Virus genome (UHGV): UHGV-1548554 | Reading direction: 5' to 3' (one strand) | DNA: 10,071 bases | Source: a virus | Part shown: in pieces, positions 1,744 to 10,071 of the stretch | Layout of the letters: the number at the start of each line of letters is the position of its first letter | Position numbering within the stretch: the first letter of the stretch is position 1 | Position numbers and translations under genes: made by a program | The notes under the pieces: generated by a model | Databases searched by the model: none | The model's input: only the letters and a program-made list of their open reading frames with translations | Told to the model about the DNA's origin: nothing

Positions 1744-2199
1744 CTATCTCCCGTGATTCAGGAAGTCGATTAGTTCTTCGCGTGTGGCGCTGTAAAAAGT
1801 CACGTCATCCACGCCTTTAAAGTATTTCTTGATGGTTCCGACACGCTTAAGGCCAATCATTGCGCAGTAAATCTGCCCGTGGCGGAATTTGCGTGCGGCG
1901 AACGATGTGACGCACTGAACGGTGGTGTTAGTCAGAATGTATCGCCAGAACGCCAGCCCGATTTCCTTGCTGAAGCCGCGAATCTCTGGCAGGTACATGG
2001 CGTGGCAATCGAATGTCAGCGGCTGAATCTCCTGATAGTAAACAATGCCGCCGAACTGCCCGTGCACGTTCACCTCAAAGTAACGGCAATCAGGTTTGTA
2101 GTCGTATCCATCACCGTTGTTGCTCCCGGCGATAATGTCAGGGTGATTTCCTACTGCTTCGATCAGGTCGATGTTTCGCGTTGGTTTGAACTGAATCAT
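1744..2199 (-). CDS. P22 gp14-like protein (ejection-protein assembly / DNA-stabilisation position); function assigned by synteny only
   Basis: 152-aa ORF in the track (1744..2202, starting at GTG). I prefer the ATG at 2199..2197, which overlaps the tail-needle stop as ATGA and suggests translational coupling. Sits between tail needle and gp7-like gene as in P22/Sf6. I do not recognise the sequence itself. Confidence 0.55.
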   Translation of the reverse strand: MIQFKPTRNIDLIEAVGNHPDIIAGSNNGDGYDYKPDCRYFEVNVHGQFGGIVYYQEIQPLTFDCHAMYLPEIRGFSKEIGLAFWRYILTNTTVQCVTSFAARKFRHGQIYCAMIGLKRVGTIKKYFKGVDDVTFYSATREELIDFLNHGR

Positions 2200-3047
2200 C
2201 ACTGCTCCGCAATGATTTTGATGGTTGTGGCAGTAAACGCCGCCCCATTTGACTGAATGGTTAACGTACTGCCATTTGTGGCAAGAAAGCCGTTTTTATC
2301 CACGCTGAAGAACGTAGCTAACAGGATGTTGTCGGTTGTTGTCGCCGAGTTGCGACTGCTTACCAGTGTGTCAGGAACAGAACCGGAAAATGTTAGCTGC
2401 ATTGACCTGTTGGCGGTTCCGCTGGGCCACGTCCCGACAATCGATAGCTTGAAGAACAGGGTTTTGTTCTCGTTGAACACAACCATCTTGTTGTTAACAG
2501 TGTCGAAGAATGGTGCCAACGTGCCGGATGACGGCGTGAGCGTTTTCAGCAGGCTAACAAGGTTGGTCGGCGCTGTCGGGATGGTTACAGATACGCCAGA
2601 GTAAACAACCTCTGACTTCTTGCGCGTGGTTGCATACTCCAGAGCATCAATGCGCGTTTCATGGTCTGAAAGCGTGTTTTGAATGGCGACAACTTCATCA
2701 GTCAGATACTCAATATCGTTTTCTGCTGTCGTTAATCGTGAATCAAGGCCGACTATCGCCGCTTCTGCGTTAGTGATCCTTGTTTCGTGGTCCTGTATCT
2801 TCGCTTCAGCCGATGCCAGTCGAATTTCGTGATCGACCAGAATCACATCCTGCTCATCGTTCCTGACCTGTGCATCATAAGCGCCCTGTCCGGCCTCGTT
2901 GGCCTTGTTAGCCACGTTGCCAACATCAGTACCCTGTGCGATAACGTACAGCAGATATGACTGCGAGAAGATATTGCGTGGAAGGACTGATGTATCGAGC
3001 CGCGTAGCCTGCACAATAACAGGGGTATTGAGATTCGAATCCGCCAT
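2199..3047 (-). CDS. Tail needle protein (P22 gp26 family) with extended C-terminal domain
   Basis: 282-aa ORF. The N-terminal ~60 aa ([43 protein letters not shown]...[11 protein letters not shown]) closely matches the P22 gp26 N-terminal domain as I recall it. It is followed by a heptad-phased segment with three DHE(I/T)R(L/I) motifs at residues 72, 86 and 128, then a ~135-aa S/T/N-rich C-terminal domain. The start ATG overlaps the gp10-like stop (TAATG). Confidence 0.85.
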
Positions 3048-4465
3048 TACTCAATCCTTATCTGGCAGCCAGACAAAGTGACAGGTGACTTCGTGATAAC
3101 GCGCAATTTGAAGCCAATGTTTTTCCTGATGCGCCCTACTTTCTTCCACAAAACGCGTTTGTCGTAAACGAACGGTTCATTCTGCTCAATCATCTGCTCA
3201 CGCCCGTAATTGATGCCGTCAGTGGTTGCAGAGAGGAACAGGCGGTCGGCGTACTGAGCTACGCCAGTGGATGATTCCACCTCCAGATCGAAGCATCTGG
3301 CGTTATCCGCTTTGAACAGTGGAGTAAACAACAGGTGTTCCTGTTGAAGCCCATACTGGCTGCTGATATCGAACTGCAATTTGCCGGTAACCGATTCCAG
3401 CTTATCGCCGCACGTTATCTGATTGCCTTCGTAAATGAAGTCGATAGCGCGGTACACATCGTCATACAAGCCAGTTTTCAACACACACCATTGCGGACCA
3501 TTGGCGCTTGAAGATGCGTCGTACACGAGGACGTGACGCGGAAGATGGATAATCAGCAATTCATGAGCATCAAACCGCAACGATTCCATCACGCCATCAG
3601 CCAGTTCATTAGCAGTGTAGGAACGGAGGATTTTCTCAATGCTCGCGCTGGCGATTGGTGACACCTGCCCGGAGCCGATGATGTATACAGACGGCGCACC
3701 TGTTGCCGGATTGCTGATGAACGCATAGGAATCAGCAAACGGCGTTTTGCAGTAAGTTCCGGCGATGCCTTTTTGCACCATCAGCGATGGCTGCGCGACA
3801 TACAAAGCGGCACCAACAGTGGTTGCACCAGTCAGGGAAAAATATTCAATCGTCGATGAACCAAAGCAGACGATGAAGTCTCGCCATGTTCCGATGCCGA
3901 TGATGCCGTCAGGCTGAGACTCTGCACGATATTGTGCGCTGTATCGGTCAGGGTGCGATTCGTCTTCAAGGTCAGTGATAAACCATGAATCAGTGCCGTC
4001 TTTTGACCACGCATAACGCCCACGTAAGCGCGTAATGTCGCGGACTGAACCTAACTCATACTGCGTGAATCCGCTGTCTGTAGGCCAGTTTGAGACGGTT
4101 TTAACCGTGCCATCATAACGATACTCGACCAGTTGACCATTAACGCCTACCGCCTGTGATGTCCGACCATGCGCCATTGATACGCGACCACTTCCGGCAA
4201 CATCACCGACTTCACTTTCTCCTTTGTACAGTTTGCCACCACACACGCGATAAACAGCACTCTGCGCCATGTTGTACTCGACGCCTCGAGATATACCGTT
4301 CACATCAGAACGTTTGGCAATGCCCGGGAATGAGCGAAGATATCCGCTGCTGTTCAGGATTTCTTTGGGTGTAGCCAGCATATTCACTGGGAGATAGTCG
4401 ATATAGTCGGCGTTTCGAAAGTCTTTGCCGACACCTTTCATAAGCGGAAGTTGCTGAATCGGCAT
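3047..4465 (-). CDS. Tail hub / head-completion protein (P22 gp10 family)
   Basis: 472-aa ORF. The N-terminus [49 protein letters not shown] is near-identical to P22 gp10 as I recall it, and the length matches. SD GGTGA lies 4 nt upstream of the ATG. Position between gp4-like and tail-needle genes. Confidence 0.9.
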
Positions 4466-6418: not shown

Positions 6419-7312
6419 TTATTTTTTTGCCTTTTTAGCGGCGAAATACGGCGTCCAGTCACCAGTTTCCAGCGCCTTGGCTTTCAGTTTGTCGAGGTTA
6501 TTGATTACTGCGCCGTTGCTCCCCTTAACTGTCGGGGTTGTGGCTGCCGTGGTTTTTGCTTTTGGCATGATTCTGGCCTTCGATTCGATACGTTCCAGCA
6601 GACGACCAATTGCTACGGGGTTGGTAGCTTCTGCCAGTTGCTTGCGCAGTTCAGCGTTGCGACCGAGTGCCAGAACAACGATTTCCGGCTTCTCTGACTC
6701 AAACAGGATCGCGTTTTGTGTCTCGATGGGGATTTCCTCGAGTACGGCCTGCTCAGCTTCCTGATAGCCAGGAACTTTGAGAGCCTTAACACGTTGCTGA
6801 TATTTGGATAATCGCTCTTGATAGGCAGCCTGAAGCTCCTGCTCCTTCTGCTTGCGAGCCATCTCCTGTTGCTGGTACTTGCCGTTATCCTCTGCCCACT
6901 TAGCCATGCGTTGCTGGTAGATTTCTTCATCGAAACCGATGTCCTCATCATCCAGTTTTGGCATTCGCGGTGGTTGAGTGATTACCGGCTGCTGCTCGAC
7001 GGGTTTCTGAGACTGACGCATCAGCTCTTTCAGCTCGCGGTCTTTCTCTTTAATCGTCTTGCGCAGGTGTTTTACCAGTCCATGCTCTGCGCCATCTTCG
7101 CTGGTTGGCGAATCCAGCTTTTCGTCACCAAAGTAGAATTCCTGTTCTGATTCGTCGTCATCAGTTTCAGTAGCTTCCTCTGCATCATTGCCGGAGGACT
7201 CGCTGCCATCTTCTGTTTCGACTTCTTCAGCCAGTTCGACATCATCAGGAATCTGCTCTGACGCGTCGGGTTCGATTTCAACTTCTGGTGTGTTTTCTGC
7301 CATCTGGTCCAT
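6419..7312 (-). CDS. Scaffolding protein (P22 gp8-like by position and composition)
   Basis: 297-aa ORF between portal and coat. The N-terminal ~75 aa are about 40% Asp/Glu, the middle is Q/E/K-rich and helical-looking, and the basic C-terminus (...NNLDKLKAKALETGDWTPYFAAKKAKK) resembles the coat-binding C-terminal region of P22 scaffold (KLKAK motif). Its stop is 18 nt before the coat start. Confidence 0.7.
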   Translation of the reverse strand: MDQMAENTPEVEIEPDASEQIPDDVELAEEVETEDGSESSGNDAEEATETDDDESEQEFYFGDEKLDSPTSEDGAEHGLVKHLRKTIKEKDRELKELMRQSQKPVEQQPVITQPPRMPKLDDEDIGFDEEIYQQRMAKWAEDNGKYQQQEMARKQKEQELQAAYQERLSKYQQRVKALKVPGYQEAEQAVLEEIPIETQNAILFESEKPEIVVLALGRNAELRKQLAEATNPVAIGRLLERIESKARIMPKAKTTAATTPTVKGSNGAVINNLDKLKAKALETGDWTPYFAAKKAKK

Positions 7313-7402: not shown

Positions 7403-7867
7403 TTACTGCTGTGGTTGTTGCTGAGTTGATTTTTGCAGGATGCTGCTGATGTCCATGCGCTGCGCATGGCCCTGTGCCTGACTTTTCAGGACAAGCTCTG
7501 CATCAGCACGGGCATTGTCTCCTTGCTGTTGCTGGAACTGTCCGAGCAGTTTCAGAGCCTCGCGGATATCAGATTTTTGCTGGCTATCGGCAGATGCGAG
7601 GATTTTCACAACATTTGCCGCTGCAACCTGAGCATCAGTCTGTGCCTGGAATGCTTTAACCTGAATGGCTGCCTGTTCGTTCTGCGCTTTCTGTAATTCA
7701 GCCTGACCAGCAAGAAGCTGACCTTGCGCTGCAACCATAGCCGGATCTGGCTGACTGGCCTGTTGTTGTTTCGCCTGTTCAACCATCTGCTGTTCTTCAG
7801 GCGTTCTCGGCTTGATAACGCCAGACAGAAGCAACTGATTGCGGTTGTATTCTTTCAGGTCGTCCAT
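7403..7867 (-). CDS. Portal protein, C-terminal helical 'barrel' region, in a different frame from the portal body (frameshift fragment)
   Basis: 154-aa ORF. ...KPRTPEEQQMVEQAKQQQASQPDPAMVAAQGQLLAGQAELQKAQ...NARADAELVLKSQAQGHAQRMDISSILQ matches the C-terminal region of the P22 portal (gp1) as I recall it. Its frame is offset by 1 nt from ORF 7797..9596. Confidence 0.75.
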   Translation of the reverse strand: MDDLKEYNRNQLLLSGVIKPRTPEEQQMVEQAKQQQASQPDPAMVAAQGQLLAGQAELQKAQNEQAAIQVKAFQAQTDAQVAAANVVKILASADSQQKSDIREALKLLGQFQQQQGDNARADAELVLKSQAQGHAQRMDISSILQKSTQQQPQQ

Positions 7868-9596
7868 CCCCGTCCATATTGTCGAGAATCATCGACGATA
7901 CAAGGTCGTGCTTCGGCGTTCCTGGTGGGATAAGTGCCAGCATGGAAAGTAACGACTTAACCGTTGCATCACGGCGAGTAGCGAACGACTGACCGACATC
8001 GACAGTCACTTCATAGTTACCCTGCGAAAGGTCGTTAAGCGCGATAACCTGCCCTGTCTGACGGTCAACCACTTCACCAGTCATCAGCGCCACGTCATCG
8101 CTGCCGTCCTCATTAACGATGCGCATTGGCGTATCGCTGCCATAGACCTCACGCGCCATAGAAAGCCACACGACGCCAGCACGGCGCATGGATTTAGCCA
8201 TGTTGTCCATGTAGATATAGGACTGCGTGTCCATCCGGTTAAAGATGCTATCAACGGTATCGGTAGCGACGTTGCTCGGCATGTTCTCAAGCTGCGACGC
8301 ACCTGTAATTTGCTGAATAGCCGTTCCGGTGTACTGCAATAGCCCGGCAAGAGCAGGAGGCATTTGTGTCGGAGGTGTCCAGCCAGCAACCTGAGCCTCT
8401 GAAATGACCGTTCCGTTTTTGTCCTTCTTGCTGGTCATGGGAAGAACTGCAGGTCTTTTCTTATTCCTCTCTGCCCAGTGATTCATTAATGGACCGGGAA
8501 TGAAATCAACATCCACGATAGGAATGCCATCACCGCCAGCCTGAGTAGCGTTATCTGCAATCATGGAAACCATCAGGTTCTCAAGACGCTGTGCATCCAT
8601 CGCTTTTGCTGCGTGGCCTTCGATTCGCTCCTGATTATCAACAAATGAACGACGCCCATATACCGGGATGAGAGGAATATGTTCACCCGGAATACGCTTC
8701 GGTTCTTCCAGCCATTCAGCGCCAGACAGAAGACCGCAATAAACGCGGCGCTTCTTCACCGTTCGCTCGCCAATCAGTTCGAATGCACCATCGGTCAGCT
8801 CGTCGACAATATCTTTGATTTGCTCTTCATCATAAATTGCCGTTTCTCCGCTAACAGGGTTGCGCCACGCCGTGAGCTTCACCTTCTCTATGCGAACTTC
8901 GTAGTAGCGTCCAACATAGATGGCATCAGGCGTTGACCAGTCATATTGAGTGCCAGTGTCATCACGAGAAAGACTTGCAGCGATGGAATCAGGGTATTCA
9001 GCTTCGAACGCTTTAGGCGTCATGGAGAACATTTCCATAGCCCACATAGCATCAGAGCGGTCATATTGCTTGCTGTCCTGATCGAAGAAGACGCATGTCG
9101 CTGGGTCGTAAACAGGAAGAAGGCTTATACGGCGTTGCTCGTTACTCGGATCCATTTCATCTTCGTAATCGGCACACATGCGGAAACAACCGAATCCGCC
9201 CGTTACAGCATCATCAAATGCGTTATCACACGCTTCGCCACCGGATGTTTCCTGATAGTCAGCGCGGAATTTGCCGTTCATCTTTTCGGCTAACGCTTCC
9301 GATGCCTTATCGTCCTTCGGCCTGAATTTAACGCTGATGCGATTCTGTCGATACTCGCCAATGATGCGATCACATTCACGGGCAATCTTATTCAGTTCAA
9401 AGCGCGGATAATGCTCAAACCTGCCTTCATCAAATGAGTAACCAGCGTTTGTGCTGCCTTCCCACTGTGCGCCGGACACCCGGACGAAACGTTGAGCCTC
9501 AATAATCTGCTCACGCATATCCTGCGTTGCTGACCAGGCATTATCAAAGTTGCACAGCACCTTGCGATGCCAGTCAGTCATCTTTTTTTCTGCCAT
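7797..9596 (-). CDS. Portal protein (P22 gp1 family), N-terminal 599-aa ORF; homology to portal ends ~22 codons before its stop
   Basis: Segments such as ...KKRRVYCGLLSG... and ...GEHIPLIPVYG... match conserved P22 portal motifs (RRRVY, GEHIPIVPVFG) as I recall them. ATG at 9596 lies 1 nt after the terminase stop (TGAtATG). Confidence 0.9.
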   Translation of the reverse strand: MAEKKMTDWHRKVLCNFDNAWSATQDMREQIIEAQRFVRVSGAQWEGSTNAGYSFDEGRFEHYPRFELNKIARECDRIIGEYRQNRISVKFRPKDDKASEALAEKMNGKFRADYQETSGGEACDNAFDDAVTGGFGCFRMCADYEDEMDPSNEQRRISLLPVYDPATCVFFDQDSKQYDRSDAMWAMEMFSMTPKAFEAEYPDSIAASLSRDDTGTQYDWSTPDAIYVGRYYEVRIEKVKLTAWRNPVSGETAIYDEEQIKDIVDELTDGAFELIGERTVKKRRVYCGLLSGAEWLEEPKRIPGEHIPLIPVYGRRSFVDNQERIEGHAAKAMDAQRLENLMVSMIADNATQAGGDGIPIVDVDFIPGPLMNHWAERNKKRPAVLPMTSKKDKNGTVISEAQVAGWTPPTQMPPALAGLLQYTGTAIQQITGASQLENMPSNVATDTVDSIFNRMDTQSYIYMDNMAKSMRRAGVVWLSMAREVYGSDTPMRIVNEDGSDDVALMTGEVVDRQTGQVIALNDLSQGNYEVTVDVGQSFATRRDATVKSLLSMLALIPPGTPKHDLVSSMILDNMDGDGRPERIQPQSVASVWRYQAENA

Positions 9597-9597
9597 A

Positions 9598-10071
9598 TCA
9601 ACCTACACCACAAGGAATTGAGTAACTGGAATAGTCGGGTTGCGCAGCCGACTCCGGGCAATGCATACACATCATCAGCGCATCAGCCAGGTTAGGAGAT
9701 GGAATACCGAGCTTCTGCTTCATTTCGACCTTAGTCATTAGCTCCAGCTTCCCGTTGTTATTGAATTTGCGCTGAATCTGCGTCAGTTCTGCAAACAGCT
9801 TCTCCAGCATCTTCTCGCCTATTGCTTCTTTGTCGAAACTCAGCATGTCGTCGGGGTCTGCATACTCACCGTGGACAACCGCCCGATATGTCAGATAAAG
9901 CCTGTCAGCCAGCGCGTAATAGAATTGCGCTCGCTTATTGCGGAACACATCACCAATAGTGCGAACGTTGTCGCCCTGTACGACTTCATCGGCCCATGCT
10001 CCGGCCTGATATGGTGCATCTTCATCGAATGGCGATTCGCTGCCCTTGAACATCGTGGCGGTGATTTTCTT
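9598..10071 (-). CDS. Terminase large subunit, C-terminal 157 codons (5' end beyond the right edge of the window)
   Basis: The reading frame is open from the window edge (rc of 10054..10071 = KKITAT, no stop) to TGA at 9600..9598. It sits immediately upstream of and co-directional with the portal gene, as in P22/Sf6. I do not recognise the sequence itself, so the call is by synteny. Confidence 0.72.
   Translation of the reverse strand, partial: KKITATMFKGSESPFDEDAPYQAGAWADEVVQGDNVRTIGDVFRNKRAQFYYALADRLYLTYRAVVHGEYADPDDMLSFDKEAIGEKMLEKLFAELTQIQRKFNNNGKLELMTKVEMKQKLGIPSPNLADALMMCMHCPESAAQPDYSSYSIPCGVG

Follow-up and report, generated by a model that had tools for sequence, protein, structure and literature searches.

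Portal proteins of P22-like phages

The portals of P22-like phages are encoded by a single continuous ORF of about 708 to 733 aa that includes the wing, stem, clip, crown, and barrel. In P22 gp1, the crown comprises residues 525 to 600 and the barrel comprises residues 600 to 725, and a core consisting of residues 1 to 602 has been expressed, oligomerized, and crystallized, including in complex with gp4 (PMC5290284; structures 5JJ1 and 4V4K). The final 50 residues of gp1 are dispensable, as seen in P22 dif1, which is viable although its gp1 lacks residues 676 to 725 (PMC4992974). The portals of the Lederbergvirus phages CUS-3, Sf101, phiv205-1, and Kapi1 and of the NLHY01 prophage are each encoded by one 2,199-nt ORF (732 aa), in the gene order terL-portal-scaffold-coat-gp4-gp10-needle. 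An intact portal of this kind aligns end to end with Sf6 gp3 (PDB 7SFS; E=6e-249) and with P22 gp1 (3LJ5 and 5JJ3; E=5e-118), the crown and barrel included.

The window, a 10,071-nt stretch of viral DNA from a metagenome (UHGV-1548554), covers the head and tail-accessory genes of a presumed E. coli prophage of the P22-like group (Lederbergvirus, CUS-3/Sf101-type) and has the same gene order. As in other P22-like phages, its portal gene sits between the large terminase and scaffolding genes. Immediately upstream is the 3′ part of terL (9598..10071, minus strand), which is cut by the window end, and immediately downstream is an intact scaffolding protein gene of 297 aa (6419..7312, minus strand). 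The terL-portal-scaffold-coat synteny was seen in L001, in the sister contig L004, and in the closest isolate contig, L135. Apart from the portal, the window genes have the lengths found in intact relatives: in addition to the partial terL and the scaffold, these are the coat (417 aa), a 62-aa ORF, gp4 (153 aa), gp10 (472 aa), the needle (282 aa), a DUF2824 protein (151 aa), and gp7 (230 aa). Both the window and L004 carry phage structural genes only.

A 5-bp deletion splits the portal gene of the window

Compared to the single 732-aa ORF of its relatives, the portal of the window is split into two minus-strand ORFs of 599 and 154 aa. ORF1 (7797..9596; stop codon TGA at 7799..7797) consists of 576 native residues, which make up the wing, stem, clip, and first half of the crown, followed by a 23-aa out-of-frame tail. 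ORF2 (7403..7867) encodes the remaining half of the crown together with the complete C-terminal barrel and is equivalent to P22 residues ∼565 to 725. A search with the PF16510 (P22_portal) profile gave 507.5 bits (E=6e-152) for ORF1 and 33 bits for ORF2, at a cutoff of 26.1. ORF1 covers positions 2 to 539 and ORF2 covers positions 537 to 594 of the 594-position profile (2 to 594 combined), and since this coverage is complementary, the two together represent one portal. The preliminary description had assigned both ORFs to the portal, and the ORF and profile analyses agree with it. The out-of-frame tail of ORF1 (7868..7800, minus strand; DGRPERIQPQSVASVWRYQAENA) has 23 codons, one more than the 22 counted previously, and overlaps the start of ORF2 in the other frame. 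A shorter reading of ORF2 (7403..7786, minus strand; 127 aa) begins at an ATG at 7786, 10 nt past the ORF1 stop. This shorter reading is the gene called on L004 (gene 2286-2669), and the exact protein is present in the searched protein collection.

Alignment with intact relatives showed that the portal gene carries one 5-bp deletion, of GCGAA or, equivalently, CGAAG. The deletion junction is at 7871/7870 if GCGAA was lost and at 7870/7869 if CGAAG was lost, and these two placements are indistinguishable because of a 1-nt G microhomology. The intact relatives read ATGGACG(GCGAA)GGGATGGAC, the five bases in parentheses being absent from the window. Thus, ATGGACGGCGAAGGGATGGAC in the relatives corresponds to ATGGACGGGGATGGAC in the window, and across the junction the intact allele is ACGGCGAAGGGATG whereas the deleted allele is ACGGGGATG. 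In codons, the relatives have GAC GGC GAA GGG ATG and the window has GAC GGG G/ATG. The full coding-sense junction is AAT ATG GAC GGG G/ATG GAC GAC CTG, with the ATG of ORF2 at 7867..7865, directly after GGGG. The intact protein reads ...LDNMDGEGMDDLKEY..., from which Glu577 and Gly578 are removed by the deletion. Every relative reads GGCGAAGGG at this site, including one that is 99.78% identical across the whole window. A megablast search with 7403..9596 found the portal in 11 phage records and in 425 complete E. coli genomes; the portal span was 2,199 nt in the matches listed compared to 2,194 nt in the window, and the phage portals (CUS-3, Sf101, phiv205-1, Kapi1, and others) had 95 to 97% DNA identity. 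For instance, the alignment with the E. coli AZ146 prophage contains one indel only, the 5-bp gap.

The preliminary description had located the frame switch at the GGGG run (7868..7871, coding sense, minus strand), and both its coordinates and its frame analysis were correct. However, it had explained the switch as a 1-nt frameshift, a gained G in a C4/G4 homopolymer, whereas the alignments show a 5-bp deletion that created the run. This means that the G4 run is not a preexisting homopolymer to which a G was added.

Two candidate origins of the deletion were considered and rejected. One was the footprint of an excised insertion sequence: in L131, the end of an IS1203-like element abuts ATGGACGAC, but this point is 4 to 9 nt from the deletion and the lineages differ. 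The other was slippage between the copies of the 7-nt direct repeat ATGGACG...ATGGACG, which would remove 15 nt and not 5.

The break lies in the middle of the crown

The last 212 residues of an intact relative align to P22 gp1 (3LJ5 chain) with no gaps, placing residue 5 of the query at P22 residue 511. In this alignment, the break corresponds to G562/K563 of P22 gp1: Gly576 is equivalent to P22 G562, the start of ORF2 to residue 565, and the alternative ATG at 7786 to residue 592. Because the P22 crown extends from residue 525 to residue 600, the break is mid-crown, ∼40 residues ahead of the barrel, rather than at the junction between the portal body and the barrel, where it had been placed before. 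The Glu-Gly pair that is removed belongs to a DG(E/K)G motif (P22 residues 561 to 564), which is DGEG in Sf6 gp3 and DGKG in P22 gp1. This crown turn is conserved across the family and is lost, together with the reading frame, in the window portal. The break site looks like a Gly-rich turn between helices.

The native part of ORF1 ends 40 residues short of the P22 1-602 core. P22 dif1 is likewise a C-terminal truncation of a P22-family portal, but it loses only the dispensable last 50 residues, whereas the window portal loses ∼156 native residues, among them half the crown and the entire barrel. No phenotype for a truncation at residue 562 or for an in vivo deletion of the full barrel was found in the accessible literature.

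Nearest relatives and age of the deletion

The nearest relatives were reached by an exact-protein look-up with the tail-needle protein of the window. These are contig NLHY01000022.1 (83.9 kb) of the isolate draft genome GCA_002226825.1 (L135) and the Logan assembly ERR10176544 (L136), which do not differ from each other in the region compared and have an intact 732-aa portal ORF. Across its full 10,071 nt, the window is 99.78% identical to both, the differences being 17 SNPs and a single gap, the 5-bp deletion. The native part of ORF1 corresponds to residues 1 to 576 and ORF2 to residues 579 to 732 of the L135 portal; both parts are collinear with this intact orthologue and 100% identical to it, with no amino acid differences. 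This exact match favors a genuine inactivating mutation in a prophage, one of the possibilities raised in the preliminary description. Another of them, a naturally barrel-less portal, found no support, ORF2 being simply the missing part of the intact protein.

The exact 599-aa protein is recorded on one contig only, the 9,222-nt scaffold_4275 of COST17-1_SAMEA4545442 (ENA ERZ28576142; L004). A search for literature on the sample accession SAMEA4545442 found none. L004 matches the window collinearly over positions 10071 to 850, with no indels and 10 SNPs, of which two are synonymous changes in the portal gene (8154 and 8148) and the other eight fall close together in gp10 (4286..4391). Compared to L135, the window and L004 have in common the deletion and seven further derived SNPs, and in the portal gene the deletion is the sole difference between L004 and L135. 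Judged from this comparison, the deletion is very recent, younger than any substitution in the portal gene, and does not represent an established architecture. Because L004 has the same deletion but is separated from the window by 10 SNPs, the allele has been assembled at least twice. However, the independence of these assemblies, which might derive from one sample or from related ones, is limited because both terminate at the identical base in terL and differ in tight SNP clusters.

Distribution of the deleted junction

The deleted junction, searched as sequences of 23 to 35 nt, was absent from IMG/VR, from GTDB (one genome per species), and from JGI metagenome contigs, and the intact 28-mer junction was present in at least 120 IMG/VR contigs. 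A 111-nt query centered on the junction matched 419 complete E. coli genomes and 12 phage records with a best identity of 95.7%; among the matches listed, 116 nt of the record align to 111 nt of the window. None of the 419 genomes or the 12 phage records carries the deletion, and none reaches the identity expected of a carrier. The last 56 residues of ORF1, which include the out-of-frame tail, returned no other carrier from a set of 5.8 billion proteins searched by 90% cluster representatives. This is probably because only representatives were searched, the 599-aa protein lying inside a cluster of a 733-aa portal. The exact look-up with the gp10 protein of the window returned no record, which indicates that the index searched does not include the contig of the window itself. 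The deletion is known from two metagenome assemblies only.

Interpretation of the split portal gene

The split gene is probably the result of a recent and genuine inactivating 5-bp frameshift deletion in the portal of a gut E. coli P22-like prophage. The deletion would then be present in the DNA itself, beyond the assemblies. By removing Glu577 and Gly578 from the DG(E/K)G turn of the crown, it would shift the frame such that translation from the normal start yields a 599-aa protein with the native wing, stem, clip, and first crown half followed by 23 nonsense residues, lacking the remainder of the crown and the whole barrel. The 154-codon remnant, which has no good ribosome-binding site, would probably be made poorly or not at all. 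Such a truncated portal is presumably nonfunctional, and its truncation should prevent or severely impair the formation of infectious particles. The expected outcome would be a prophage that forms no normal infectious heads and is in early decay. Most likely, the event is known in kind, a small-deletion pseudogenization of a prophage structural gene in a well-studied family, and involves no new mechanism. Its biological weight is small, a frameshifted structural gene in a prophage being either routine early decay or an assembly flaw. For annotation, its value is that the two ORFs should be treated as one disrupted portal gene rather than as a short portal with a separate hypothetical protein.

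Errors in the sequence would also produce a split gene. An error in homopolymer length, or a true +1 G insertion in the G run, is ruled out by the alignments: five bases are gone relative to all relatives, and a length miscall therefore cannot explain the window. The sole point in favor is that taking out one G formally restores a long ORF of 730 aa, and the reconstruction in the preliminary description stands to that extent. However, its product (...LDNMDGMDDLKEY) lacks two residues of the ancestral protein (...LDNMDGEGMDDLKEY), the sequence ...NMDGMDD... occurs in no family member seen, and both Sf6 and P22 keep DG(E/K)G. Moreover, the window is 5 nt shorter than its relatives and not 1 nt longer, and the relatives read GGCGAAGGG rather than GGG, none having been seen as GACGGGATGGAC with an intact 730-aa portal. 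Comparison with related strains, which had been proposed as a check, thus bore out the disruption of the portal, the relatives being intact at 732 aa, but not a single-G lesion, and one G should not be taken out to "correct" the lesion. An assembly or consensus artifact, in which the phage in the sample is intact and the gap arose from contig joining or polishing in a strain-variable region, is unlikely but a more serious concern. Assembly of the portal gene from gut metagenomes is evidently difficult, as scaffolds that are apparently of the same ENA assembly series have N10 joints within ∼100 nt of the site (L125, L126, L130, L132, L134, L142, and L144). In addition, the window and L004 end alike in terL, their two tight SNP clusters resemble alternative bubble paths, and none of the isolate genomes examined has the allele. 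On the other hand, a clean 5-bp loss with no Ns and a 1-nt microhomology is atypical of de Bruijn assembly or short-read errors, the deletion is found in two contigs that differ in SNP content, and there is no other indel in 10 kb compared to the 99.78% identical relative.

A different reading accepts the deletion and takes the split gene to be functional, either through a +1 slip on GGG-G, which would yield a nearly full-length portal minus Glu-Gly (...NMDG-MDDL...), or through a barrel that is reinitiated separately and acts in trans. We consider this very doubtful. The sequence GGG_G might let the P-site Gly tRNA re-pair in the +1 frame, where the next codon is the ATG of ORF2, and the ATG at 7786, close to the ORF1 stop, would be the only start plausible for termination-reinitiation. 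A virion needs just 12 portal subunits. Also in favor is the ability of the P22 1-602 core to oligomerize alone (PMC5290284). However, conservation of the frameshift is lacking: none of the relatives has it, the nearest being in frame, and the deletion arose after the last substitution in the portal gene. The 0-frame A-site codon is GAT, which is neither rare nor a stop and therefore gives no signal for pausing. Neither ATG is preceded by a convincing Shine-Dalgarno sequence, no Shine-Dalgarno-like stimulator lies at the right distance, and the break falls within the crown and not between domains. That the deletion is real and the phage nevertheless viable, by +1 slippage or with a barrel-less portal plus a reinitiated barrel peptide, is more doubtful still; if true, it would mean that, in nature, P22-type portals can do without the barrel or obtain it in trans.

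Other broken portals in this prophage group

When the 154-aa and 127-aa C-terminal products were looked for as separately called genes, about 45 further contigs were found. Apart from the scaffolds with N10 gaps, the broken portal alleles of this prophage group affect the same gene and the same C-terminal 150 nt as in the window, but their lesions are independent and at other positions, and none has the 5-bp deletion. They include nonsense mutations in L129 (TCG>TAG), L133 (GGA>TGA), L137 and L143 (CAG>TAG), L139 (GAA>TAA), and L145 (GGA>TGA), a 13-bp deletion in L138, the IS1203-like element abutting ATGGACGAC in L131, and an IS-associated truncation in L140 (complete genome CP031282.1). Two explanations of this clustering, a hot spot for mutation and selection favoring barrel-less portals, were rejected. 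The lesions are of unrelated types, and their C-terminal clustering reflects ascertainment because the contigs were retrieved by a separately called C-terminal ORF. The base rate of portal breaks is itself a caution against over-reading any single one. In this prophage group, broken portals are nothing unusual and make up about 2 to 3% of copies: in IMG/VR, a sample not selected in this way, 2 of the 77 loci with the whole gene have broken portals, one at codon 266 and the other at codon 5.

Interruptions of the portal gene in other contigs

Among the contigs retrieved through a portal C-terminal product called as a separate gene, the interruptions of the portal gene were of several kinds. In seven ENA metagenome scaffolds (L125, L126, L130, L132, L134, L142, and L144), which appear to come from one assembly series, a run of Ns lies inside the gene. 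The run is exactly 10 Ns long in several of these scaffolds and longer in L134 and L144; in L126 the Ns were added without loss of sequence, and in others they stand in place of sequence. In both cases the protein collection ends up with split genes that are spurious.

Other contigs, from unrelated samples, carry sequence lesions at portal codons ~555 to 605, namely, five different nonsense mutations and one 13-bp deletion (L129, L133, L137, L138, L139, L143, and L145). Some of these lesions recur; for example, the L138 contig is on record in 5 samples. The positions come from contigs retrieved through the separately called C-terminal product, and their clustering in the C-terminal stretch most likely reflects ascertainment together with clonal spread of defective prophages.

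A mobile element was found in another metagenome contig (L131:1-138), where the end of an IS1203/IS629-like element of the IS3 family adjoins ATGGACGAC, the first codons of ORF2 (7403 to 7867, minus strand). This junction is only a few bases from the deletion in the window. Two further contigs, L127 and L128, one of which is an E. coli isolate draft (GCA_015049345.1), begin at this junction too, and the repeat seen in L131 is the probable cause.

The portal gene is also cut off in a complete 4.5-Mb chromosome (GCA_003382705.1), where a copy of the same prophage (CP031282.1, 1866090 to 1872473) is in an advanced state of decay. There, a transposase-bearing element truncates the portal beside an integrase fragment. 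The coat gene of this copy is broken into ORFs of 367 and 49 aa. Separately, a ~258-nt fragment with 97% identity to the E. coli portal region occurs in the record of Aeromonas phage AP1 (MT713136.1, 246634 to 246891), a 254-kb jumbo phage, where it has no portal annotation. Its presence may be due to contamination, to chimerism in the assembly, or to a recent transfer.

Mosaicism and assembly features of the window

In gp10 (minus strand), all 13 differences from the 99.78% identical isolate prophage L135 fall within 193 nt, at 4199 to 4391. The five at 4199 to 4256 are common to the window and its sister contig L004, and the eight at 4286 to 4391 occur in the window only, matching neither L004 nor L135. 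The cluster resembles a patch of recombination or the path of another strain through the assembly graph. The last base of the window, position 10071, is position 1 of L004, an independently recorded ENA contig. Since both end at this identical base inside the large terminase gene, a common assembly-graph branch point is suggested, and the two possibly come from the same or a related sample.

The tail needle (2199 to 3047, minus strand) is 282 aa long with a C-terminal knob (PF16532), like that of Sf6, whereas a 233-aa form occupies this position in E. coli AZ146, as it does in several further relatives. This difference reflects the kind of mosaic exchange that P22-like phages typically show.
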